Assembly (NCBI GenBank): GCA_944351395.1
Contig: CALVPP010000002.1
Span: 1-57,619 of the forward strand
Direction of reading: 5' to 3'
DNA length: 57,619 nt
DNA from: an uncultured Bacilli bacterium
GTDB taxonomy: Bacteria > Bacillota_I > Bacilli_A > RFN20 > CAG-826
Position 1 is the first letter of the stretch. Every line of letters begins with the position of its first letter. Both the position numbers and the translations under genes were made by a program. Shown here piece by piece: positions 4,924-36,288 of this stretch. The notes under the pieces were generated by a model. It was not told where the DNA came from. It saw nothing but the letters and a program-made list of their open reading frames with translations, and searched no databases.

Positions 4924-5774
4924 ACGAATTATCTAAACAATATTCTGTATCATTACTATGTAATGTTATGGATATAAATCGAAGCGGATATTATAAATGG
5001 AAATATCGTAAAGCTCATCCATCAGCAAGACATATACAAAGGATGAAAGATGTTGAATTCATCAAGGAAGAGTCTGACAAACATAAAGCTCACGGTTATC
5101 GTTGGTTAGCAGCGTTTCTACAAAGAAAATATGGAGTAATCATGTCTCCAGAATACATATATCGATGCAGGAAATATGCAGGAGTTATATGTGAATCAAA
5201 ACATTATAAATGGAAGAAACCTGGAGAAAATAGTTACATTTATGACAATCTAATATGGAACAATTGGAATGCATCTAAACCATTAGAAATAATCGTATCT
5301 GATATGACATCATTCTATTCCAAAGGAATATATTACGAATTAACGTTATACTTCGATACGTTCAATCGTGAAATTGTGGGGTTTGGATTAACAAACAGAC
5401 GAGGAGAAGCAAGGCCATATTTTGAAGGATTAGAACAAGTTATAGGGCTTATAAAAGAAAAAGAACAAACCAGCTTATCTACATTGCATACAGATCAAGG
5501 CGCGGTTTATTCTTCTGAAGCCTTTAACAAGCTTCTATCTAATAATAACATTATCCATTCAATGTCTCGAGCAGGAACTCCAACAGATAATCCAATAGAT
5601 GAATCTCTTAATGGGTGGATCAAAGATGAACTATTTATCGATTTCAATTTGAAGAAGTGTGATGATGTTTTATCTTTGATAAGGGATTACATCAATTATT
5701 ATAATTACGAACGTCCAATGTACTGTCTTAAATACAAAACCCCACATCAGTATAAAACTGACATGGGGTATTGA
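4543..5774 (+). CDS. IS3-family transposase OrfAB fusion, made by programmed -1 frameshift at 4878..4884
   Basis: Slipping -1 at A-AAA-AAG gives ..KK-GIRYYQRLEYEVLDELSKQYSVSLLCNVMDINRSGYYKW.., running in frame into the 4968..5774 ORF. The DDE integrase core is present: VSDMT, HTDQGAVY, ESLNGWIKDE. Confidence 0.82.
4878..4884 (+). promoter_or_regulatory. Programmed -1 ribosomal frameshift heptamer A-AAA-AAG
   Basis: The heptamer is in the X-XXY-YYZ phase of orfA (TCA AAA AAG). The -1 frame is open from here to the orfB stop. Confidence 0.8.
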
Positions 5775-9413: not shown

Positions 9414-10694
9414 TTAATCTTTTAAACAAGTTATTGGAATAATTTTAACATCATTTTTTGTATAACAAATATCACCAGTAGTAATAATAATCATCAAATC
9501 TGGTTCTCGAATTGGTAGTTTATTTTTGTCTTTATTGTTTTCAACTACTAATTCTTTAAATTTTAATAAGTTGTTTATGCCTTCATCAATTCGTTTGCTA
9601 CCCAATTTAACTTCCACAAGAGCGTACCGACCATCTGATAAGGTAACAACCCAATCTATTTCCAGATTATAGGCATCGTGATAATGCTTTATAGTGCCAC
9701 CAAGTGAAGAAGAATAAACTAATAAATCTCGATATACTAAACTTTCAAATACATGGCCAAATAAATCAAAATCTTTAAAATAATAATTAGGCGATATTCC
9801 TAAAGCTGCAGACGCGATTGAAGGATCGATAAATATTCTTTTTTTCGGCATCCTTATTGCTTTTTTACTTCTTATTTCTGGATTCCACGCATCAACATCA
9901 GCAATAACAAATAGCTCTTTCAATTTATCGACGTATTCATCAAAAGTTTCTTCGCTAATTTTGTAATTTGCAACGACATCATTGTAAATAACATTCTTTT
10001 TCGCAAGTGTACCTATATTTCTTGCGTATGACTTTAAAATAGCATTAACAATTTCTGGATTCCTCTTTTTATTATCAAGCGAACAAATATCTTTTTCGCA
10101 TATTTGCTTAAAATAATCGCGAGCGATAAGAAGTTTAGCCTCGTCATTTTGAATCGCCATAGTGCGAGGCCATCCACCTCTACAGGCAACAAATATCAAT
10201 CTGTTGATATCTACATCACTTGTTATCCCATCTATTGCCAAATTAGGATTATCAAACAATTCCTTTAGTGATACTTTTCCATTCGAATCACTGGTTTCAT
10301 ACAATGACATAGGGTACATTGTAACCGTTGAGATTCTAGTTGTACCAGTATGTGCGGTATTAACTTTTTTTGAAGAAGAACCAGTAAGATAAAACTGTCC
10401 AAAACAATCTTCATTGTCGCACGCTAAGCGAACAAGCCCCCATATTTTCGGAGCATCTTGCCATTCATCAAATAGCGTAGGACGAGGAAAATTCAAAAAA
10501 GCATTAATGTTTGAGTCGGCTAAAAGAAGGTATGAATTCCTGCGCGACTCGTCCTCAAATTCAATTGTATAAGAACATCTCTCTTTTGCAGTTCTTGTCT
10601 TACCAGAACCTTTTGGACCTAAAATATTTATTGCTCCAAAAGCTTTTTCTCTTAAATCTAAATCTTTGTCAATTATTCTTTTGATATATTTCAT
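9414..10694 (-). CDS. Solitary AAA+ ATPase with a DUF4143-type (PD-(D/E)xK-like) C-terminal domain (COG1373 family)
   Basis: Walker A is ILGPKGSGKTRTA and Walker B is TLFDEWQDAP. The C-terminus reads GHVFESLVYRDL...LEIDWVV...YALVEVKLG, a nuclease-fold-like E..D..E.K pattern. There is no recognisable SD before the ATG. Confidence 0.75.
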   Translation of the reverse strand: MKYIKRIIDKDLDLREKAFGAINILGPKGSGKTRTAKERCSYTIEFEDESRRNSYLLLADSNINAFLNFPRPTLFDEWQDAPKIWGLVRLACDNEDCFGQFYLTGSSSKKVNTAHTGTTRISTVTMYPMSLYETSDSNGKVSLKELFDNPNLAIDGITSDVDINRLIFVACRGGWPRTMAIQNDEAKLLIARDYFKQICEKDICSLDNKKRNPEIVNAILKSYARNIGTLAKKNVIYNDVVANYKISEETFDEYVDKLKELFVIADVDAWNPEIRSKKAIRMPKKRIFIDPSIASAALGISPNYYFKDFDLFGHVFESLVYRDLLVYSSSLGGTIKHYHDAYNLEIDWVVTLSDGRYALVEVKLGSKRIDEGINNLLKFKELVVENNKDKNKLPIREPDLMIIITTGDICYTKNDVKIIPITCLKD

Positions 10695-13913: not shown

Positions 13914-15113
13914 TTATTCAAGACTTTTTTTAATTGCGTCAGCAAGAGCGATTAATTTTAAATAACTATCTTCATCGACACTAGATTTAATAGTGACATC
14001 TTCTTCTAATATGGTCATATTTTTCATCTTATTCACTTCTTCTTTCATGAGTTTGCCAGCTTGCGGAGCCCAACTACCATTCTCGACGATCGCTATTGTC
14101 CTAGAAGATAAATTATGTGCTTGTAAATCGTGCAATAAATTGTGCATGAGTAAAAAGATACCCATATTGTAAGTCGTCGACCCTAAGACGATATGAGAAT
14201 ATTTAAAAGCATTGCTCACGACGACAGATACATCAGTTAAAGACAAATCGTAGACGTCGACCTTTACGCCTCTTTTGACGAGTTGACACGCTAAAATGTT
14301 CATCGCATTTTCCGTGTGACCATAAACTGAACTATAAGCGATGAGAACACCTTTTTCTTCTGGTGTATATGTACTCCATAAATTATATTTTTCGATAATT
14401 TTAGCAAAATCATTACGCCAGACGAAACCATGAAGCGGACAAATTAATTTAATATCTAAACCACTAGCTTTTTTTAACACTGCTTGTACTTGTGGACCAT
14501 ACTTACCGACGATATTCGTATAATATCTTCTCGCTTCATCTAAATAATCATTAAAGAAATCCACTTCGTCATTAAATAGATGGCCATTTAGTGCGCCGAA
14601 TGTCCCAAAAGCATCAGCACTAAAGAGAATTTTATCTTTCATTTCATAACTCATCATCACTTCTGGCCAATGCACCATTGGAGCGTTCACAAATGTAAAG
14701 GTATGTTCGCCAACATTTAAAGTATCGCCTTCATTGACGAGATGAACTTTAGCGTCTAAATCTTTACCAAAAAATTGATGAATCATATTTAAAATCTTTT
14801 GATTACATACAATAGTGGCTTCTTTATGGTAATCGAGTAATGTTTTCAGAGTTGATGAATGATCTGGTTCCATGTGATGGACAATGACATAATCTAATTT
14901 TCTTCCCGCGAGAGCGAATTCAACGTTTTCTAAAAATGTTTCTAAACACGCTTTATCAACTGTATCTAACAATACTGTTTTTTCATCTTTTAAAAGGTAA
15001 GAATTATAGGACATACCTCTTTTTAAAGGATAAATTCCTTCGAAGATATGAATTTTTCTATCGTCCGCGCCAACCCAAGTTAATGATTCATTTACTTTTC
15101 TTACACAATGCAT
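13914..15113 (-). CDS. FprA-family A-type flavoprotein (flavodiiron protein, O2/NO reductase)
   Basis: Metallo-beta-lactamase-like domain with the di-iron motif HHMEPDHS, followed by a C-terminal flavodoxin-like domain (VLIAYSSVYGHTENAM). Confidence 0.88.
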   Translation of the reverse strand: MHCVRKVNESLTWVGADDRKIHIFEGIYPLKRGMSYNSYLLKDEKTVLLDTVDKACLETFLENVEFALAGRKLDYVIVHHMEPDHSSTLKTLLDYHKEATIVCNQKILNMIHQFFGKDLDAKVHLVNEGDTLNVGEHTFTFVNAPMVHWPEVMMSYEMKDKILFSADAFGTFGALNGHLFNDEVDFFNDYLDEARRYYTNIVGKYGPQVQAVLKKASGLDIKLICPLHGFVWRNDFAKIIEKYNLWSTYTPEEKGVLIAYSSVYGHTENAMNILACQLVKRGVKVDVYDLSLTDVSVVVSNAFKYSHIVLGSTTYNMGIFLLMHNLLHDLQAHNLSSRTIAIVENGSWAPQAGKLMKEEVNKMKNMTILEEDVTIKSSVDEDSYLKLIALADAIKKSLE

Positions 15114-15245: not shown

Positions 15246-16055
15246 ATGGACGCATTAACTTCATCAATCATATCTATTTGCATCATTTTTGGAGGATCAG
15301 CAATCGGATCCGCTCTAGTGTTTTTCTTTAAAAAAGATTTATCTGATAAGATGAATAATCTCGTTTTAGGTTTCGCAAGCGGCATCATGATTGCAGCGGG
15401 TATATTTGGCTTGCTCATCCCTTCGATTGAAGAAGCTCAAAACTCATCTACCTATGCATCGTTCCCATACGTCCCTGTTCTCATCGGATTTTTCATCGGA
15501 TGTATCATCCTTTATGCGATAGATAAAATCGTTCCACATTTGCACCACGAAGGCAGTGAGGAAGAAGGTATTAAGACGAACAAATTAGGCAAACACACCA
15601 AATTATTTTTTGCTGTTCTCATCCATAATATTCCAGAAGGCTTAGCCGTCGGTTTTGCCTGCGGTCTAGCATTAGCAAACCCAAGCCTCACTACTGCGAT
15701 GGCGGCTTTATCTTTAGCAATTGGCATCACTATTCAAAACATTCCTGAATCGTTTGCTGTCGCCGTACCTTTATACGCGAACGGTATGAAAAAATCTAAA
15801 GCGTTTCTTTTAGCTTTAGCGACTGGTATCGTCGAACCAATATTCGCTATAGTAGGTTTGTTTTTAGCGTTTTACATCGAACCATTGTTGCCCTGGTTAT
15901 TAAGTTTCGCTAGCGGGGCAATGATTTACGTCACTGTGGACGAATTATTGCCAGAAGCGAGAAAAGGTGCTGCTATACATTATGGATTATGGTCGTTTAT
16001 CATCGGATTCATGATCATGCTCGCATTAGAAGTAATACCTATCAATGTCATTTGA
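15246..16055 (+). CDS. ZIP-family (ZupT-like) divalent metal transporter
   Basis: Polytopic membrane protein with a His-rich loop (HLHHEGSEEEG) and the ZIP signature HNIPEGLAVG / QNIPESFAV. I moved the start to MDALTSS (15246). Confidence 0.85.
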   Translation: MDALTSSIISICIIFGGSAIGSALVFFFKKDLSDKMNNLVLGFASGIMIAAGIFGLLIPSIEEAQNSSTYASFPYVPVLIGFFIGCIILYAIDKIVPHLHHEGSEEEGIKTNKLGKHTKLFFAVLIHNIPEGLAVGFACGLALANPSLTTAMAALSLAIGITIQNIPESFAVAVPLYANGMKKSKAFLLALATGIVEPIFAIVGLFLAFYIEPLLPWLLSFASGAMIYVTVDELLPEARKGAAIHYGLWSFIIGFMIMLALEVIPINVI

Positions 16056-16662
16056 TGTTTTTTAAAATTTTCACTAATTCGTGTGCATTAGTGCTTGGAT
16101 TCATATCACAAAAATCATGTTCACATGCATTGTGATGTAGTAAAACTTTATCACAATTTTTAATGCATACATCTGCCAAAGGTTCTAATAATTCAAAATA
16201 ATTTTCACCTTTTCTATAATTTGGAAGGTGTTTTTTTAATTCGCGTTCCAACTGTCCAAAGTTCTCAAATTGTTTCGTAGTAAACATAAAGTGGAACAAT
16301 AAAAATACTTCGAAACATGGATTAGAAGGAAGAAATCTTATAGGTAACTTATTCTCTTTGATTATTTTTTGAATGTTTTTCATTTTATTTTTATCAAAAT
16401 CCATATCAAAAAGACAATAAAGCAAATCTCCATCCGACAAACCATTATTTTTAATGTAAGTTTTCATCTCATTCATAATGCCTTGAAGGTGCGTGTTGTT
16501 TCCAAAAACTTTTTTAATACGGTATCTATTTTGCAAAGAATTAAAGTTCTTAAAATATAAAAACTCGCTTCTATTTTTTCCTTCCACACCTAAAAGAATT
16601 AGTTTTCTTTCCTCTCGAAAATTAATTCTTCTTTTTTTCTGCCTACTTCTAATTTCTTTCAT
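16048..16662 (-). CDS. RloB-like Toprim-domain protein (AbiLii/RloB-like), partner of the upstream ATPase
   Basis: KLILLGVEGKNRSEFLYF matches the EGxxE Toprim/RloB N-terminal motif. LFDMDFD is a DxD motif. LPSNPCFEVFLLFHF matches the RloB signature SNPCFE.WLLLHF. There is a 4-nt overlap with the ATPase gene, and the 3' end overlaps the convergent ZIP gene by 8 nt. Confidence 0.8.
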   Translation of the reverse strand: MKEIRSRQKKRRINFREERKLILLGVEGKNRSEFLYFKNFNSLQNRYRIKKVFGNNTHLQGIMNEMKTYIKNNGLSDGDLLYCLFDMDFDKNKMKNIQKIIKENKLPIRFLPSNPCFEVFLLFHFMFTTKQFENFGQLERELKKHLPNYRKGENYFELLEPLADVCIKNCDKVLLHHNACEHDFCDMNPSTNAHELVKILKNIK

Positions 16663-17903
16663 GAATCGATATTCGGCATCGCTCCAAAACGACCTTCTAA
16701 GTATTTTTTTAAAACATTGTCATCTAATCTAACGCTAAATTCGTCCAACGAATAAAGTGAAGATGTTCCTAAATTAAAGTCCTTTTCAGCAAAATATATT
16801 TGGTCGCGTCTAAAATAATCTAGATTGAGCAACAAAATGTTATGTGAATTAAAAATTAACTGCGCACCTTTTTTATTAATGGTGGGGTCATTAAAAAGAT
16901 TTAAAATATATTTCATCATCTCGTGATGTAATCCATTATCCATTTCGTCGATGACTATAGTTTTACCATTTATCAAAGCATCGTAAATCAAAGGTGCATA
17001 ACATAATATTTTTTTTGTACCATTTGATTCAAATAAGAAATTTAATGGGAATTCGACTGTATTTTCATCTGTTTTAATCTTGTGTTGAGTAATAATTCTA
17101 AATCGTTTTAAACCTTCTACTGCTTTTGGGGTTAAGTTAAATCGACGCATGACATCTGCTTTGAAGTTGTCATCTGCATTGTCAACTTCATATGTATAGT
17201 TAGAAATATTGATGTCAGCTTCATTTAAAAATCTGATGATGAATTCATTTAGACCTAAATCCTCATTCTTATCTAACTGATTTGCTAAATAATTTAAATC
17301 AAAATAATTATTCTCGTATATTCCTATATCATTTTTAAAATATTCAAACGCTTCTAAAGTGGATTTTGCATTCCACGCAGTAGCAGTAGATAAGAAAAGT
17401 TTATTTTCAGATGTTCTAGCAACTATAGGTCCTAGTTCATCGCGAGTATTTTCTCTAAAAACATATTCATTGGTGTTTTTTCTTTCAAAAATTAAAGAGG
17501 GTTTTTGTGTTTTATAAACATATAAATATTCTTCAAAGATTTGTTTATTTGTCGCTTTAAAACCATATTCATATTTGCGACCATTTTTCATGAAAACAAA
17601 TTCGAACGAGGATGGCTCATTAACGTGCTTGTCATCAAATAAAAAAGGAACGAGGCGATTATAAGAATCCCCTATTTGGTGGATGTTGGAAGTTCTCACT
17701 AAATCTATTGCCACAGATAATGCTTCAAGAACAGCGCTCTTACCAGAGGCGTTTGCACCAAAAATAGCCACTGATGGGAGAACTCGTTCTCCATCTTCTA
17801 AGATGACGGAATCTTGATGTTCCTTAAAATTATTTGCAAGCAAATTTAATGTAGCTTCGTCGCGAAATGATTTAAAGTTTGCAAAAGAGAATTGAATGAG
17901 CAT
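16659..17903 (-). CDS. ABC/AAA_21-type ATPase (AbiLi/RloA-like)
   Basis: MLIQFSFANFKSFRDEATL.. is the typical N-terminus of this family. Walker A is FGANASGKSAVLEAL, Walker B is IVIDEMDNGLH, and the H-loop is FNSHN. SD GAGGAGG lies upstream of ATG 17903; the ORF-track start at 17933 was trimmed. Confidence 0.8.
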   Translation of the reverse strand: MLIQFSFANFKSFRDEATLNLLANNFKEHQDSVILEDGERVLPSVAIFGANASGKSAVLEALSVAIDLVRTSNIHQIGDSYNRLVPFLFDDKHVNEPSSFEFVFMKNGRKYEYGFKATNKQIFEEYLYVYKTQKPSLIFERKNTNEYVFRENTRDELGPIVARTSENKLFLSTATAWNAKSTLEAFEYFKNDIGIYENNYFDLNYLANQLDKNEDLGLNEFIIRFLNEADINISNYTYEVDNADDNFKADVMRRFNLTPKAVEGLKRFRIITQHKIKTDENTVEFPLNFLFESNGTKKILCYAPLIYDALINGKTIVIDEMDNGLHHEMMKYILNLFNDPTINKKGAQLIFNSHNILLLNLDYFRRDQIYFAEKDFNLGTSSLYSLDEFSVRLDDNVLKKYLEGRFGAMPNIDS

Positions 17904-18005
17904 ATGTTTCCTCCTCATTAATAAAATACACAAAAATAAGAGCCTATTTCAAATATATTTTTATATTTTTTGTATTTTTTTCACAAATTCTTGAAAAATA
18001 TGATA

Positions 18006-21879: not shown

Positions 21880-22041
21880 TCTACTAATTATCTACTTAAA
21901 ATGGGGGCTTTTTCGAAAGTCAAAATATTTTGAGTAAAAGGCTTTTTTTCATCTTTTTATCTATATAAAATATGTGATACGAAATGGCTCAACATTGAGC
22001 AATGATGACGCAATCTTTTTTTAATGAATAATGGAGGAAAT

Positions 22042-24426
22042 ATGATCAGAGTAAGAAAAAGAGATGGTTCAATCGTCGACTTCGATCTGAACAAAATTAA
22101 AAACGCAATCGAAAGAGCGTTTAAAGCCGAAAATAAATATTATGACGATAACATTTTAAATCTGTTATCGCTCAATACGACTGCTATTTTTAATAGCAAA
22201 ATTAAAGAAGATACAATCGATGTCGAAGACATCCAAGATGCAGTAGAAATCGCACTCATACAAGGTGGCTACATCGACATCGCTAAATCATACATCGTCT
22301 ATCGTAAAAGACATGAATCACTTAGACAAATTAAAAATACAGAGTTAGATTACGCTGCTACCGTAAACAATTATTTAAAAATTAACGACTGGCGCGTTAA
22401 AGAAAATAGTACTGTTACTTATTCTGTCGGCGGTCTCATCCTCTCTAACTCTGGCGCGATGACGGCGAACTATTGGCTTAGTGAAATTTATGATTCAGAA
22501 ATTGAACAAGCTCATAGAAGTGGCGCTATCCACATCCACGACTTATCTATGTTAAGTGGTTACTGTGCTGGATGGTCTTTAAAACAACTCATACAAGAAG
22601 GTTTAGGAGGCGTACCAGGCAAAATTACTTCTAGTCCTGCATCCCACCTTTCTACTTTATGCAACCAAATGGTCAATTTCTTAGGCATCATGCAAAACGA
22701 ATGGGCTGGCGCTCAAGCATTCTCTAGCTTCGACACTTATCTAGCGCCATTTGTGAAAAAAGATAATCTTACTTATAAAGAAGTAAAACAATGTATTCAA
22801 TCATTCGTCTATGGTGTGAACACTCCTTCTAGATGGGGTACACAAGCACCATTTTCCAATATCACTTTAGACTGGGTCGTACCAAATGATATGAAAAACT
22901 TACCTGCTATCGTCGGTGGTAAAGAATGCGACTTCACCTATGGTGATTGTAAGAAAGAAATGGATATGATTAACAAAGCTTTCATCGAAATTATGATCGA
23001 AGGTGACGCAAATGGTCGCGGTTTCCAATATCCAATTCCTACTTATTCCATCACGAGAGATTTTGATTGGTCCGATACAGAAAATAACAAATTATTATTC
23101 GAGATGACTGCTAAATATGGCACTCCATATTTCTCAAATTACATCAATTCAGATATGGAACCGAGCGATGTGCGCTCGATGTGCTGCCGTCTTAGACTCG
23201 ATTTAAGGGAATTAAGGCGTAAATCAGGCGGTTTCTTCGGAAGCGGCGAAAGCACTGGTTCCGTCGGTGTCGTCACTATCAATTTACCTCGTATTGCTTA
23301 TCTTGCAACGGACGAACAAGATTTTTATGATCGACTCACTAAACTCATGAATTTAAGCGCGAGATCATTGAAAATTAAACGCGATACGATTACTAAATTA
23401 CTAAATGCTGGCTTATATCCTTACACCAAACGTTACTTAGGTTCTTTTGAAAACCACTTCTCCACTATCGGCTTAGTGGGCATGAACGAAGCGTGTTTAA
23501 ATGCGAGATGGTTAAGATGTGATCTAACACATGAAGAAGCACAAGATTTCGCTGTGAAGACGCTTAATTTTATGAGAGAAAAATTAAAAGATTATCAAGA
23601 AGAATATGGTGATCTTTATAACCTTGAAGCGACACCAGCTGAATCTACAGCCTATCGTCTCGCTAAACACGATAAGAAACTTTATCCAGATATCATCACT
23701 GCGACAGATGATGATCACACACCGTACTATACGAATAGTTCCCATCTTCCTGTTGGATTTACTGATGACATCTTTAAAGCACTAGACATTCAAGATAAAC
23801 TGCAACCTCTTTATACTTCTGGTACAGTTTTCCATACTTTCCTTGGTGAGAAAATGCCTTCTTGGCAAGCGACGAAAAATTTGGTGAGGAAAATTGCACA
23901 TAATTACAAATTGCCTTATTACACTATTTCTCCTACTTATTCCGTTTGTAAAAAACACGGCTATATTACCGGCGAAGTGTATGAATGTCCTCATTGTCAT
24001 GAAAAGACTGAAGTTTATTCTCGTATCACTGGTTATTATCGTCCTGTCCAAAATTGGAACGATGGTAAGGTACAAGAATTTAAAGATAGGAAGACTTATC
24101 ACGTCACCCCAGATTCAGTAAGAAATCTTAAAATTGAAAGATGTGAAGAAACGAACGATAACTATATCAAAAACCCTGTCTTAGATGAAAACAAATCTCT
24201 TCTCCTCTTCACTACGAAAACATGTCCAAATTGTAAACTCGTCAAAATGATGCTCGATAAGAACCATATTCCTTACACCATTATTGATGCGGAAGATGAA
24301 AAAGAAAAAACATTAGCGTTTAACATCAAACAAGCACCGACCTTACTCGTACCAAATGGCGAAGGTTATACATATTATCAAAACGCGAGTAACATCAAAG
24401 GTTACATCGATTCTAAGAAGAATTAA
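22042..24426 (+). CDS. nrdD: Anaerobic ribonucleoside-triphosphate reductase (class III) with an N-terminal ATP-cone and a fused C-terminal thioredoxin-fold CxxC domain
   Basis: ATP-cone: IRVRKRDGSIVDFDLNKIKNAIERAF. Finger-loop region: RSMCCRLRLD. Zn ribbon: CKKH...CPHC. Glycyl-radical motif SRITGYY at 24019..24039. A ~110-aa extension then follows, with LLLFTTKTCPNCKLV...QAPTLLV (CPNC at 24223..24234). SD GGAGG lies before ATG 22042. Confidence 0.9.
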   Translation: MIRVRKRDGSIVDFDLNKIKNAIERAFKAENKYYDDNILNLLSLNTTAIFNSKIKEDTIDVEDIQDAVEIALIQGGYIDIAKSYIVYRKRHESLRQIKNTELDYAATVNNYLKINDWRVKENSTVTYSVGGLILSNSGAMTANYWLSEIYDSEIEQAHRSGAIHIHDLSMLSGYCAGWSLKQLIQEGLGGVPGKITSSPASHLSTLCNQMVNFLGIMQNEWAGAQAFSSFDTYLAPFVKKDNLTYKEVKQCIQSFVYGVNTPSRWGTQAPFSNITLDWVVPNDMKNLPAIVGGKECDFTYGDCKKEMDMINKAFIEIMIEGDANGRGFQYPIPTYSITRDFDWSDTENNKLLFEMTAKYGTPYFSNYINSDMEPSDVRSMCCRLRLDLRELRRKSGGFFGSGESTGSVGVVTINLPRIAYLATDEQDFYDRLTKLMNLSARSLKIKRDTITKLLNAGLYPYTKRYLGSFENHFSTIGLVGMNEACLNARWLRCDLTHEEAQDFAVKTLNFMREKLKDYQEEYGDLYNLEATPAESTAYRLAKHDKKLYPDIITATDDDHTPYYTNSSHLPVGFTDDIFKALDIQDKLQPLYTSGTVFHTFLGEKMPSWQATKNLVRKIAHNYKLPYYTISPTYSVCKKHGYITGEVYECPHCHEKTEVYSRITGYYRPVQNWNDGKVQEFKDRKTYHVTPDSVRNLKIERCEETNDNYIKNPVLDENKSLLLFTTKTCPNCKLVKMMLDKNHIPYTIIDAEDEKEKTLAFNIKQAPTLLVPNGEGYTYYQNASNIKGYIDSKKN

Positions 24427-24431
24427 CTTTT

Positions 24432-25349
24432 ATGAATGTAGATGTCATCATCATCGGTGCCGGTCCTAGCGGACTGAACGCCGCCTTAAACTTACTGCGT
24501 AACGATCGAAGTGTTCTCATCTTAGAGAAAGAATCTTTGGGTGGACAAATCGCTAAATCGCCACGTGTAGAAAATCTTCCAAGTATCAAAGAAATTTCTG
24601 GTATGGAATTTATCGATCGCTTATTCGAACAAGTGAGCGATATGGGTGCAAATCTCGAATTAGAGGATGCTTTATCTATTGATAAACAAGGTAATACATT
24701 TTACGTTCGCACAGATTGCGATACCCACACCGCAAAAGCGGTGCTCATCGCTAACGGGGTAAGTCATCGTAAAATTGGCGTTCCTAAAGAAGACGAATAT
24801 GTTGGCCGTGGTCTTTCTTACTGTGCGACGTGTGATGGAGCGTTTTACGCAAATGAAGATGTCATCGTCGTCGGTGACGCTAATACGGCTTTACAATATG
24901 CGAACATGCTCGCTAATACGTCTAAAAAGGTGTATTTAGTTGCGCTTTTTGATAAATTATTTGCTGACCTTTCTCTCATCAAGAGATTGAACGCTAAAAC
25001 TAATGTCGAGGTGTTTTATAATTACTGCCTTAAACAATTAAAAGGCGAACCAGATTTTGAAGAAGCAATTTTTGAAAATACGAAGACGCATGAACTTAAA
25101 TCATTTAAAGCAAAAGGCATTTTCATCGCTGTCGGACAAGAACCACATAACGACAATTTTAAAAATTTAATCGATTTAGATGATAAGGGCTTTTTGCTCG
25201 TCGATGAGAAGATGATGTCTAAGACACCTGGCCTTTTTGCAAGTGGTGATACGCGTCAAAAAAATGTGCGCCAAGTGACGACTGCTGTAAGCGATAGTTC
25301 TATTGCTAGTTTCTATATAAACGATTATCTTGATTCTTTGGAATCGTAG
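24432..25349 (+). CDS. Thioredoxin-reductase-like flavoprotein lacking the NADPH-binding motifs
   Basis: FAD motif IIIGAGPSG, then GGQI, redox centre CATCDG and C-terminal SGD..RQ are all TrxB-like. However, TrxB GGGNTA is GDANTA here, and HRRDGFR is ALFDKLF here. Confidence 0.8.
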   Translation: MNVDVIIIGAGPSGLNAALNLLRNDRSVLILEKESLGGQIAKSPRVENLPSIKEISGMEFIDRLFEQVSDMGANLELEDALSIDKQGNTFYVRTDCDTHTAKAVLIANGVSHRKIGVPKEDEYVGRGLSYCATCDGAFYANEDVIVVGDANTALQYANMLANTSKKVYLVALFDKLFADLSLIKRLNAKTNVEVFYNYCLKQLKGEPDFEEAIFENTKTHELKSFKAKGIFIAVGQEPHNDNFKNLIDLDDKGFLLVDEKMMSKTPGLFASGDTRQKNVRQVTTAVSDSSIASFYINDYLDSLES

Positions 25350-26026
25350 CCTCTAGTTTCAATATTTAAATCAGGGTATCTTCTCTTCACTTCTAATATT
25401 TTTTCATAAGGGAAGGGATGAAGCCCTTTTTTGATGCAAGTGCCCCTATCTACAAATTGTTGGAACACTAATTTAGGAAATGGTTTAATATTTTCGATCA
25501 TCTCCACTAACGTTTCTACATCGTGTAATTCATCCACGAGAGTGGTTCTAAATTCATATTGAACGCCGGAAGATTTGATGAGATTAACGCTACGACGTAT
25601 AAGATTTAAATCATTCTCTACTCCCGTTGCGATAGAATATTTTTTGAAACTAGATTTAATATCCATTGCTATATAATCAATTAGATTATTCTTTAATAAA
25701 TCTTCAACTACTTCTGGTCTTGTTCCGTTCGTGTCTAATTTGACGAGGAATCCTAATTTTTTTACCTCGACTATAAATTGTTTTAGTCTGGGATCTAAAG
25801 TAGGTTCACCACCGCTAAAACAAACTGCATCAATTTTATTAATGCGTGTTTTTAAATCTTCAATGATGGATGAAAAAGATAATTCATCATCTTTAAAGTT
25901 GTTTAAGACGATGATGGAATTGTGACAAAAAGGACAACGCATATTACAGCCGCTAAAAAAGATGGTATAAGTTAGATAACCATCGAAATCCACTAATGAT
26001 AAATTGGAGACACCTGCTATTGCCAT
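25325..26026 (-). CDS. nrdG: Anaerobic ribonucleotide reductase activating protein (radical SAM)
   Basis: The segment FFSGCNMRCPFCHNS carries the CxxxCxxC cluster motif, and GGEPTL is present. It is adjacent to nrdD. Its 3' end overlaps the TrxR-like gene by 25 nt (convergent). Confidence 0.88.
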   Translation of the reverse strand: MAIAGVSNLSLVDFDGYLTYTIFFSGCNMRCPFCHNSIIVLNNFKDDELSFSSIIEDLKTRINKIDAVCFSGGEPTLDPRLKQFIVEVKKLGFLVKLDTNGTRPEVVEDLLKNNLIDYIAMDIKSSFKKYSIATGVENDLNLIRRSVNLIKSSGVQYEFRTTLVDELHDVETLVEMIENIKPFPKLVFQQFVDRGTCIKKGLHPFPYEKILEVKRRYPDLNIETRGYDSKESR

Positions 26027-26211: not shown

Positions 26212-26685
26212 ATGAAATTAAACGAATACATTCAATTTCGACGTAAAGAATTAGGCCTCACGCAAAAAGATGTCGCTGATGCCTTAAATTATACAGTTCA
26301 AGCTATCTCAAAATATGAGAAAGGCTTATCACCTTTATCTAGTTCTTCTCTCATACCGATGGCTAAAGTTTTAAAAGTGGACGTCGATTCTTTATTAAGA
26401 TGTGAAACTAAAAAAGAAAACGATCTCGCTGAACTTAAAACATTCTCATCGCAACTCTTTGCAAAGAATTTTAAATATTTAAGAGAAGTACATAATCTCA
26501 CCCAAAAAGAAGTCGCTACTCTTTTAAAAATTCCTTATCAAAGCGTCTTCAATTGGGAAAAAGAAAAGAGCGTCCCGAAGACGCCCGCTCTTATTGGAAT
26601 TACAGAACTCTTCGATGTTAGTGCTACTTCAATTATGCTCACTAACATTAAAGAAGAAAGGCACAAAGCCGAACTTCGTTCATAA
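26212..26685 (+). CDS. XRE-family transcriptional regulator with two HTH domains
   Basis: There are two Cro/C1-type HTH units: LGLTQKDVADALNYTVQAISKYEKG and HNLTQKEVATLLKIPYQSVFNWEKE. Confidence 0.8.
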   Translation: MKLNEYIQFRRKELGLTQKDVADALNYTVQAISKYEKGLSPLSSSSLIPMAKVLKVDVDSLLRCETKKENDLAELKTFSSQLFAKNFKYLREVHNLTQKEVATLLKIPYQSVFNWEKEKSVPKTPALIGITELFDVSATSIMLTNIKEERHKAELRS

Positions 26686-27609
26686 CACCTCTTCTTCTTT
26701 ATATTCGATAGGTAAAGGAATATTATGCGCCCTTAAAAGGGCGTTTTGTTCTTTAAAATACTTCCTAAATAATTTGAAGAAACCTTTGGTTTTTTTGTTG
26801 ATGTAATTTGGATTAACATTAGGATCTGCTTCTAAATTTTTAAAGTCATATCGTCCGTTAACTCGCCAATGAGAAAGGATGCCAAAACGTACCGCATCGC
26901 TAGGACAATACATCGAACAACGCATACACACAGTGCAATGATGATTAATTTTAATCTTACCTTTTTTGTTACGGTGCATTGCTTTCGTCGGGCAAGCTTT
27001 AATACATAATTCACAATTGGTACATTTTTTCTTGTTCACATGAGCGATTGGTGCGTTCACGTAAGGAACGACATAAACTAATCTAGCGACGAAAGATAAA
27101 GGTCTTTTGTACCAAGAATATTTCATCTCTTCCTTTTCCTCTTTATCAATCTGAATAGCGAGTAATTGACAAAGAACTTTTAAATATAAATACAATTGCT
27201 TCGCTACTTCATCCTTATAACGGAACATGATGTTATAAGGCATGAGAAGATGTTTATCGATGATGAGTTCTAGATTTTTCTTTCTTAATCTTTTCACTAA
27301 TCTCGCCGCGGCAATATCATTCCACATGAGAGGTTCGCCGCTCGTACGGAAGATGAACAATTTTTTCTTCTCTTTTGCTTTTTCGATGAGCTTTGCATAT
27401 TTCATCACTACTTGTGGAGGATTAAATCCGTAGATAGGAAAACCAATGCCGACGTAATCATATGCATCGATGTTGATAGGAGTTATATCTCCTTCCATCT
27501 TTTTAATATCGACTTGATAACCTAATTTAGTTAGTTCATCTTTGATGAAAGAAGCAGCAAGGAACGTATTCCCTGTACCAGAAAAAACGTATAAAAGACA
27601 CTTTGACAT
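26680..27609 (-). CDS. EFR1-family ferredoxin (flavodoxin-like domain fused to a 2x[4Fe-4S] ferredoxin domain)
   Basis: N-terminal LLYVFSGTGNT has flavodoxin-like topology. Two cluster motifs are present: CTNCELCIKACP and CTVCMRCSMYCP. Confidence 0.78.
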   Translation of the reverse strand: MSKCLLYVFSGTGNTFLAASFIKDELTKLGYQVDIKKMEGDITPINIDAYDYVGIGFPIYGFNPPQVVMKYAKLIEKAKEKKKLFIFRTSGEPLMWNDIAAARLVKRLRKKNLELIIDKHLLMPYNIMFRYKDEVAKQLYLYLKVLCQLLAIQIDKEEKEEMKYSWYKRPLSFVARLVYVVPYVNAPIAHVNKKKCTNCELCIKACPTKAMHRNKKGKIKINHHCTVCMRCSMYCPSDAVRFGILSHWRVNGRYDFKNLEADPNVNPNYINKKTKGFFKLFRKYFKEQNALLRAHNIPLPIEYKEEEVL

Positions 27610-35394: not shown

Positions 35395-36288
35395 TTATAA
35401 GCTGTGTTTTAAATATCTCGCATTATCTACAAGATCGTCAATTGCGCCACTATTTAAATCATTCAAATTGTAAATGTTATCTAATATATCAAAAGTTTCT
35501 TTTAAATTATTTTTTGCATCATTCCAACCTATTCCATCAGTGAACCAAACAAAATGAAATTTATTGATAGATTTTGCTTCTAACGCTAATGTCTTATAAC
35601 TTCTAGCTGTTTCGTTTAATTTAGAACCTGATGATGAGTAAAAATTGCACTCGCAAGCGTAAATATCACCAAAAGCCCCAATAAATACAAAATCAAAACG
35701 TTTTTCTGTTTTGCCTTTATTAGATATGTTAGACAAGTCTAAATGGAATTTTCTTTCAACTTCGCTAATACACATCTCTTTAAAATAGGTCACATTTTTC
35801 TTTAGCCCCGCCTTAACAAGATAAGACTCAACAAGATCTTCCATGATGTGACCACTTCTGTTTTTTCTTGCGTTTGAATCCAAACCAACTTCTATCCCTA
35901 ATACATAATCGACCAAATTATTTATGATGTGATTTTCTAAAAGATCGAACAATCCACTATTACGCATAAAAAGAACATATTGATCAATCGAATAAGACAT
36001 TTTGTTAAAATCAAAAAGATAACTCGCATCGACGTCTTCAATTTGAATTTCTAATTCACGCTTAGCAAGTAGAATAGGAATGGTCTTTAAAACATTAGGA
36101 TATTCTTTAACGATAGCAACAAAATCTTCTTCGATATTTTTCGATGCAATAAGCGAATTAAGTATGTTTAATTCAATTTTGATTTTATCAACATTACCAT
36201 AAACTTTTTTAAAATCTGTGTAATATGTCCAAGTCGATACACTACTTTTCATAGTAGATAACCACTGCACAAAATCTCTTGTTTTCAT
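35395..36288 (-). CDS. dpnB: Type II restriction endonuclease, DpnII/MboI family (predicted GATC specificity)
   Basis: Collinear with my recollection of pneumococcal R.DpnII: WLSTM..WTYYTDF.KVY.NV..IK..LNI.NSLI.SKNI.EDF, GRKNR-like NARKNRSG, KRFDFV, NFYSSSGSKLNETARSYK, and TDG.GW..AKNNL.ETFDIL. Confidence 0.85.
   Translation of the reverse strand: MKTRDFVQWLSTMKSSVSTWTYYTDFKKVYGNVDKIKIELNILNSLIASKNIEEDFVAIVKEYPNVLKTIPILLAKRELEIQIEDVDASYLFDFNKMSYSIDQYVLFMRNSGLFDLLENHIINNLVDYVLGIEVGLDSNARKNRSGHIMEDLVESYLVKAGLKKNVTYFKEMCISEVERKFHLDLSNISNKGKTEKRFDFVFIGAFGDIYACECNFYSSSGSKLNETARSYKTLALEAKSINKFHFVWFTDGIGWNDAKNNLKETFDILDNIYNLNDLNSGAIDDLVDNARYLKHSL

Follow-up and report, generated by a model that had tools for sequence, protein, structure and literature searches.

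Here, we describe a gene module for anaerobic deoxyribonucleoside triphosphate synthesis in a 57,619-nucleotide stretch of DNA (the window) from an uncultured Bacilli bacterium (contig CALVPP010000002.1, assembly GCA_944351395.1). The window carries nrdD, whose product is a class III ribonucleotide reductase (RNR) that runs on past its catalytic core into a C-terminal redoxin domain. Directly behind it lies the gene for a low-molecular-weight thioredoxin reductase (TrxR) homologue in which both NADPH motifs have been replaced, and facing this gene is nrdG, which encodes the activase of NrdD. We read the locus as a self-contained, thiol-based reducing module for the class III RNR, with a reductase that would not use NADPH and would be fed by a carrier, and we favour this reading as a whole with moderate confidence. 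The features on which the argument draws are listed below, with positions counted from the first letter of the window.

22042..24426, plus strand: nrdD, class III RNR with C-terminal redoxin domain (likely start at 22042; the open reading frame, 22024..24426, has 800 aa)
22564..22566, plus strand: beta-A cysteine C181 of NrdD (SGYCAGW), aligned with Thermotoga maritima NrdD C125
23179..23190, plus strand: finger loop M386-C387-C388-R389 (MCCR), aligned with T. maritima S328-C329-C330-R and E. coli M-G-C-R
23626..23628, plus strand: active-site glutamate E535 (YNLEATPAE), aligned with T. maritima FNIEQVPAE (E495)
24019..24039, plus strand: glycyl-radical motif SRITGYY (G670), matching RITGY/RIVGY of solved NrdDs
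24100..24195, plus strand: variable linker, residues 693-724, from the glycyl-radical domain to the redoxin domain (alignment of 19 homologues)
24196..24423, plus strand: thioredoxin-fold redoxin domain, residues 725-800, ~75 aa (Pfam Glutaredoxin, AlphaFold2, Foldseek)
24223..24234, plus strand: CPNC of the redoxin domain
24337..24339, plus strand: cis-Pro (APT) of the redoxin domain
24432..25349, plus strand: low-molecular-weight TrxR homologue of the 'TLF type', 305 aa (TIGR01292, PDB alignments, AlphaFold2)
24456..24473, plus strand: FAD motif GAGPSG of the TrxR homologue
24822..24833, plus strand: redox-active CATC of the TrxR homologue
24873..24890, plus strand: GDANTA, in the place of GxGxxA
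24942..24962, plus strand: ALFDKLF, in the place of HRRxxxR
25325..26026, minus strand: nrdG, radical-SAM activase of NrdD (TIGR02495 NrdG2, 201.9 bits against a cut-off of 131.15)

Translation of nrdD likely starts at 22042 rather than at 22024, because GGAGG lies 7 nt upstream of the former and homologues open with MIRV. Only 5 nt separate the nrdD stop from the start of the TrxR-like gene, and nrdG converges on the latter with an overlap of 25 nt. The enzyme is a class III RNR, with catalytic core, glycyl-radical motif and NrdG activase all present. NrdD scores 1139 bits against NF006126 (cut-off 548), and it comprises an ATP-cone at residues 9-98 and a full-length match to PF13597 at residues 127-692 (E 5e-194).

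Beyond this core, the redoxin domain scores 24.9 bits against Pfam Glutaredoxin (cut-off 22.9). It reaches none of the curated glutaredoxin (Grx) or NrdH equivalogs: 17 bits against a cut-off of 85.75 for TIGR02194 (NrdH), 17.1 against 90 for TIGR02181 (Grx3) and 23.2 against 88.55 for TIGR02196 (YruB). The AlphaFold2 (AF2) model of the domain, built with 44 homologues as alignment, has a predicted local distance difference test (pLDDT) score of 94.1 and the topology b-a-b-a-b-b-a, with the CxxC heading helix 1 and the cis-Pro preceding strand 3. Foldseek returned 68 PDB matches at E<=1e-3, with probability 1.0 to thioredoxins and NrdH; the 50 matches listed all have the thioredoxin fold: most are thioredoxins, and they include NrdH and glutaredoxin. 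The residues C, P, N and C together with the cis-Pro are invariant in a domain alignment of 45 homologues. The modelled fold lets us confidently assign the extension as a thioredoxin-fold CxxC domain.

The extension is real, and it is a minority state among NrdD representatives. Of the best 150 representatives at 50% identity, 67 gave a match to the glycyl-radical motif; 49 of these 67 end 27-48 aa past it, and 18 have a CxxC-bearing tail of 100 aa or more, the CxxC being either CPNC or one of the variants CPKC, CPWC, CPRC and CQNC. Many of the closest representatives (P0197-P0345) are 900-1900 aa long, with the match broken into 2-4 separate pieces, suggestive of inteins, and in many of these long proteins the pattern search did not find the finger-loop motif.

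The linker that joins the core to the redoxin domain is unconserved among the 19 homologues and varies in length from ~30 to ~100 aa. At the upper end, one homologous locus (L069, 5520..6020) has ~100 Ala/Pro-rich residues with repeated AAPAKV units, reminiscent of the swinging arms of 2-oxoacid dehydrogenase E2 proteins, which are likewise Ala/Pro-rich. The variation in length and the Ala/Pro-rich repeat are consistent with a flexible tether. Many homologues (L003, L004, L006, L007, L016, L021 and L040) also carry one or two cysteines in the linker, ~20 residues before the redoxin domain, as CxC or CxxC (ACHC, CGC, CNC, CAC, CDDC, CLAC); L084 has none, and the window has the single C707 (24142..24144). 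These cysteines may be an extra shuttle pair like that of the class I C-terminal tail, or they may be there by chance.

The second component, the TrxR homologue, is a full-length protein with the overall fold of an NADPH-thioredoxin reductase (NTR), including the FAD motif, the CxxC and an intact GD motif; it lacks GxGxxA and HRRxxxR, and its 290.9 bits against the NTR equivalog TIGR01292 fall short of the cut-off of 343.45. In HMMER alignments with the solved enzymes of S. pyogenes (5uwy) and E. coli (1tde), GDANTA falls under GGGDSA/GGGNTA and ALFDKLF under HRRDQLR/HRRDGFR. The AF2 model (pLDDT 93.3) shows an intact TrxR fold that superposes on NTRs in the flavin-oxidizing (FO) conformation, and its best structural match is the T. 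africanus TrxR 7jyp with a TM-score of 0.94, a value that Firmicute NTRs likewise reach. The replaced motifs are shared by relatives: all 120 best homologues (50-57% identical, mostly from metagenome-assembled genomes labelled 'Bacilli bacterium') have GD(A/G)N(T/S)A and x-L-F-x-x-x-(F/Y), of which TLFDKFF is the commonest form. The FAD motif residues, the CxxC and the GD motif are invariant across ~130 such sequences, which in public annotation appear as 'thioredoxin reductase (NADPH)' or as a generic FAD-dependent oxidoreductase. Chance is excluded, because 43 homologous loci retain the CPNC and cis-Pro positions of the redoxin domain and the ~130 homologues share the replaced TrxR motifs.

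The initial annotation of this DNA, made from its letters alone, had anticipated much of the above. Its motif coordinates (SRITGYY, CPNC, CATC, GDANTA, ALFDKLF and S-M-C-C-R) all match our recomputation from the translations. It had predicted a thioredoxin or glutaredoxin fold for the NrdD tail, which model and fold search bear out, and had made conservation of the CxxC in orthologues a point to check, which the invariant residues settle in its favour. It had also described a TrxR homologue that keeps the FAD motif and the CxxC and has lost both NADPH motifs, a description that held when proper alignment to 5uwy and 1tde did not restore either motif. The survey it proposed, of how often the NrdD fusion co-occurs with such a TrxR in related genomes, is the following.

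A scan of one genome per species gave 80 related loci. In 39 of them, spread over many Clostridia and Bacilli, an NrdD with a CPNC tail lies directly upstream of a TrxR homologue, and the NrdD cores in these 39 loci are 69-81% identical to that of the window, mostly 75-80%. The linked reductases fall into three types by their nucleotide motifs: 26 have GGGNSA/QNLxxLT (QNL type), nine have GDANTA/TLFDKFF (TLF type, as in the window) and four have the canonical GGGNTA/HRRDxFR. All 34 canonical HRR-type TrxRs outside the linked group lack an NrdD neighbour. Four further TLF-type proteins from metagenomes, one of them on a 1.13-Mb contig, show the same order of NrdD-Grx, TrxR and convergent nrdG, and every TLF context examined (14/14) is linked to NrdD in the order NrdD-Grx, TrxR, nrdG. 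As NrdD and its redoxin are joined to a TrxR in 39 of 80 loci and in each of the 14 TLF contexts, we consider that the three very probably form a dedicated RNR thiol module.

Gene order around the module differs by type. Most QNL loci read nrdG-nrdD-trxR, all on one strand; the nrdG of TLF-type Bacilli loci comes after the reductase gene, converges on it and overlaps it by 4-25 nt. The convergent arrangement recurs in L081, L084, L090 and L092. Some relatives (L089) encode the redoxin apart from NrdD, in an 86-aa gene that follows nrdD and has no TrxR gene beside it.

A comparison of 130 TLF-type, 30 QNL-type and 38 canonical sequences yielded 10 TLF-specific positions, eight of them within or next to the two NADPH motifs. 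In E. coli numbering, the substitutions are G153D, G154A, E160Y, H175T/A, R176L, R177F, R181F and L222F. The TLF site thus reads as a coordinated, conserved swap of phosphate-binding residues for an Asp and a hydrophobic and aromatic set, not as decay. Judged from these residues, it is quite probable that TLF-type reductases work without NADPH.

The relationship of the TLF type to other TrxRs was followed with neighbour-joining trees, in which the NrdD-linked TrxRs group together, save two linked members with canonical motifs (L036 and L039). When the motif columns were left out, the TLF sequences formed one clade in 20/30 bootstraps, sister to the QNL clade plus one linked canonical member. 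The T. africanus enzyme 7jyp has the same QNL motif as the linked QNL enzymes and is the best fold match of the window protein; a link of the NrdD-linked QNL enzymes to Thermotogae, considered for this reason, was rejected when the tree placed 7jyp among ordinary NTRs.

Flavin TrxRs of the FFTR family and its DTR relatives also combine a TrxR fold with the absence of NAD(P)H motifs, and the initial annotation had assigned the window protein to this type. Comparison with solved structures does not support that assignment. The window protein scores 198 bits against NTRs, 134.8 against the Gloeobacter FFTR/DTR 5j60 and 105.7 against the clostridial FFTR 6gna, the motif region itself gives only 14-20 bits against FFTR/DTR, and the remodelled sites are unlike. 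The 50 best fold matches of the model include no FFTR. Cyanobacterial-type FFTRs have a C-terminal tail with a Trp that stacks on the FAD; the window protein has no such tail and stops at its last helix (residues 282-304 of 305). FFTR/DTR membership was therefore set aside on pairwise bit scores and fold ranking. The nearest relatives found outside the TLF type are NrdD-linked TrxRs, some with canonical motifs. Similarity scores and tree together suggest that the TLF type represents a loss of the NADPH site separate from that of the FFTRs.

Another TrxR homologue without both NADPH motifs (GNGKTA/NQGDKFL) came from an uncultured Clostridium sp. (L080, 7001..7858), with no NrdD adjoining. It is closer in sequence to Bacillus-type NTRs than to the solved FFTR, and NTRs again rank first when it is used as PDB query. 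It may be another separate loss of the NADPH motifs.

The predicted active site of NrdD unites hallmarks of thiol-type enzymes, namely the CC pair and the Glu, with the Met of formate-type enzymes. C181 and the segment RSMCCRL are invariant in all homologous loci that cover them, and E535 is invariant wherever its segment is covered. The NrdDs of E. coli, T4 and P. copri have the finger loop M-G-C-R and no Glu at the corresponding position. Among the published subtypes, the window enzyme has the beta-A Cys, the xCCR loop and the active-site Glu of NrdD2, with MCCR instead of SCCR; it shares with NrdD1, defined by a single-Cys MGCR and no Glu, the Met alone; and with MCCR plus Glu it differs from NrdD3, defined by QCCR/A without Met and Glu. 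Its motifs place it in the larger MCCR+Glu group. MGCR and MCCR are the two dominant class III motifs, and 83% of double-Cys NrdDs begin the motif with Met, formate versus thioredoxin as their reductant being left unsettled (Burnim et al.). In published surveys, thioredoxin alone is assigned to just two small SCCR+Glu subclades, those of Neisseria bacilliformis and T. maritima. The initial annotation had seen in the Met a conflict with thiol-driven turnover; there is none, since MCCR is the majority double-Cys motif and the window enzyme also has the thiol-type Glu.

On the observed domain folds, motif states, fusion and conserved gene linkage, we infer a direction of electron flow. NrdG would install the glycyl radical on NrdD, and in each turnover the beta-A Cys181 and the finger-loop Cys387 would be oxidized to a disulfide in the MCCR+Glu active site. 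The CPNC domain, tethered through the flexible linker of ~30 residues, would re-reduce this disulfide in cis or across the dimer. It would in turn be re-reduced by the TrxR homologue via its FAD and CATC dithiol, the gene of which would be co-transcribed with nrdD and is probably translationally coupled to it. With its nucleotide site rebuilt as a hydrophobic and aromatic one, the reductase of the window's lineage would most likely no longer be an NADPH user. A low-potential protein carrier whose gene lies elsewhere, either a ferredoxin or a flavodoxin, would probably supply its electrons. Such anaerobes already need a carrier of this type to reduce the NrdG cluster.

Two neighbours of the module bear on, or lie close to, the question of the donor.

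26212..26685, plus strand: regulator with two HTH_3 domains, between nrdG and the EFR1 ferredoxin (domain scan)
26680..27609, minus strand: EFR1-family flavodoxin-like/2x[4Fe-4S] ferredoxin (NF038196, 122.6 bits)

The initial annotation had drawn a chain from ferredoxin or flavodoxin through the TrxR-like protein and the tethered redoxin domain to NrdD, and had noted the EFR1 protein two genes away. The dedicated unit from reductase to NrdD stands through gene linkage, while for ferredoxin or flavodoxin as electron donor of the TLF reductase we regard the case as evenly balanced. The EFR1 gene itself occupies this place in the window and in L081, a 79%-identical relative, and is absent from the other TLF-type loci; ferredoxin motifs among 11 TLF loci are likewise confined to these two. 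EFR1 lies outside the conserved module and is a possible but unsupported donor candidate. The HTH_3 regulator, too, has homologues near the module in L081 and L012, within the flanks examined.

Several observations weigh against a carrier-fed, thiol-driven module and give room to other explanations. Clustering the open reading frames of the 11 TLF loci gave NrdD, TrxR and NrdG as the only common genes, with no ferredoxin or flavodoxin as a shared neighbour. The TrxR homologue is net acidic (~-9), as are ordinary NTRs, so that a basic surface on which acidic carriers could dock is not evident; nor can the reductase types be told apart by the net charge of their domains. The TLF reductase might instead still use a pyridine nucleotide, most plausibly NADH, through the remodelled site, the module then being an NADH/TrxR/redoxin system for NrdD. 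Thermotoga-type TrxRs that lack HRR use NADH, so that loss of HRR alone is no proof of lost NADH use. The fold has moreover not changed, NAD(P)H enzymes are its nearest matches, and GxGxxA still has its first Gly and its Ala, with 11/120 members also retaining the second Gly (GDGNTA); the sister QNL enzymes keep GGGNSA and have lost just the 2'-phosphate arginines, as would fit a specificity that shifted gradually and was not simply lost. We nonetheless find NADH use unlikely in the face of an invariant Asp within the glycine-rich turn, the replacement of all four basic residues by Thr/Leu/Phe/Phe alongside the aromatic E160Y and L222F, and the lack of the acidic residue at the end of beta-2 that is typical of NADH sites.

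NrdD might also be turned over by formate via Met386 and Cys181, as in NrdD1, with the redoxin and TrxR serving to rescue the enzyme or to pre-reduce adventitious disulfides, e.g. after exposure to oxygen or oxidants. The Met at the NrdD1 position (i-2) is invariant, so formate may still be used; some relatives have the redoxin without an adjacent TrxR, as noted for L089, and MCCR enzymes possess components for either reductant (Burnim et al.). Yet the Glu that marks formate-independent chemistry is just as invariant, the SCCR relative from T. maritima has no activity with formate and requires a protein factor >10 kDa, and the keeping of a whole TrxR clade beside NrdD argues for a stoichiometric role, all of which leaves formate turnover distinctly unlikely. 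The redoxin/TrxR pair could, finally, be the general disulfide-reducing system of the organism, its association with NrdD being incidental or merely regulatory. Bacilli have a single TrxB (Anjou et al.), and no canonical trxB or trxA occurs among the window reading frames scanned (those before 36292). A canonical Bacilli TrxB profile found no match on long TLF-carrying contigs, a result that speaks neither for nor against a coexisting canonical NTR. A general role is very improbable even so, with the redoxin covalently fused to NrdD and with a linkage that holds in all TLF contexts and spans three motif types and many taxa. The thiol-based module with a carrier-fed reductase remains the reading that we prefer.

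Other features of the window touch the module less directly. A perfect palindrome, TCAAAATATTTTGA, lies at 21920..21935, ~105 nt upstream of nrdD; it has three mismatches to an NrdR-box consensus, and the count of such matches across the window is not above chance. An Rfam scan gave a tRNA fragment as its sole match. Seven kilobases upstream of nrdD is a 399-aa ODP/metallo-beta-lactamase protein, possibly flavodiiron-like (13914..15113, minus strand), a homologue of which sits between the TrxR-like gene and nrdG in L012 (7912..9063). Defence and mobile genes are scattered across the window at 16048..17933 (minus), 35395..36288 (minus), 4968..5774 (plus) and 9414..10694 (minus), a set made up of an RloB/AAA_21 pair, a DpnII restriction endonuclease, an rve integrase and a DUF4143 ATPase; the Pfam description of AAA_21 reads 'putative AbiEii toxin'.

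Redoxin-served class III RNRs, ferredoxin-linked flavin TrxRs, RNR-Grx fusions and one NrdD fusion are already known. Undescribed in the literature that we reached are the spread of the module, its occurrence in the MCCR+Glu majority, the three-state series of reductases and a TLF family with a conserved rebuilt site. We put forward, tentatively and at somewhat less than even confidence, that the TLF enzymes are a lineage of pyridine-nucleotide-independent TrxRs that evolved separately from the clostridial and cyanobacterial FFTRs and arose within an NrdD-dedicated clade, through nucleotide sites that passed from HRR to QNL to TLF. On this view, many gut Bacilli and Clostridia would rely for anaerobic deoxyribonucleotide synthesis on these enzymes and the tethered CPNC domain, and hence on ferredoxin, flavodoxin or another donor, not on NAD(P)H or formate. 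If this is true, thiol-driven turnover would extend to the majority MCCR+Glu class III RNRs. The tethered redoxin and the apparently co-transcribed reductase are strong genomic evidence of thiol-based turnover in this group, and NrdD-redoxin, the TrxR-like protein and NrdG offer a minimal three-protein system for the question of the reductant. The recurrence of the module across gut Firmicutes suggests an electron route for the commonest double-cysteine anaerobic reductases. The three nucleotide-site states within one clade provide a natural series for the change or loss of pyridine-nucleotide dependence in TrxRs, and the TLF type may add a new family, from abundant gut Firmicutes, to the NAD(P)H-independent TrxRs.

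Among known systems, NrdD2 with thioredoxin and TrxR is the precedent for a class III RNR that runs on a redoxin and a flavin TrxR. The window enzyme shares with NrdD2 (N. bacilliformis; T. maritima, 4coi/4u3e) the beta-A Cys, the double-Cys finger loop, the Glu and a redoxin with a flavin TrxR as presumed reducing system. It differs in having MCCR, not SCCR, and its similarity to the T. maritima enzyme is just 140 bits. Whereas NrdD2 is served by thioredoxin, TrxR and NADPH, the redoxin here is fused to NrdD, and its TrxR comes from the same operon and is devoid of NADPH motifs.

The reductase that serves NrdD3 of Methanosarcina barkeri is an Fe-S, FTR-like enzyme and not a flavoprotein. NrdD3 has the motif QCCR/A without Met and Glu, and it is not fused to its redoxin. 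It is reported to work with an NrdH-like redoxin and a ferredoxin:disulfide reductase; it is thus like the window system in having a dedicated small redoxin for a class III RNR, one that is reduced from ferredoxin and not from NADPH. Flavin TrxRs that use ferredoxin are known as FFTRs (6gna; Gloeobacter 5j60), and they share with the window protein the low-molecular-weight TrxR architecture, the FAD and CxxC and the absence of GxGxxA/HRRxxxR. The window protein is distant from them in sequence, has no Trp tail and superposes on NTRs in the FO conformation.

Class Ib NrdH-NrdEF operons resemble the module in encoding a small glutaredoxin-like, TrxR-reducible redoxin with its RNR, and NrdH structures are among the fold matches of the window domain. 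The RNR class differs, the window domain stays far below the NrdH model cut-off, as given above, and its active site is CPNC, that of NrdH being CVQC. For fusion there are two precedents: Grx::NrdB of Facklamia ignava, in which the fused Grx domain acts as reductant of NrdB, and a single grx::nrdD fusion noted in RefSeq, from Lachnospiraceae bacterium TWA4. In F. ignava, the domain is N-terminal, sits on a class I radical subunit and works with glutathione; here, it is C-terminal on NrdD, has its own TrxR and is widespread.

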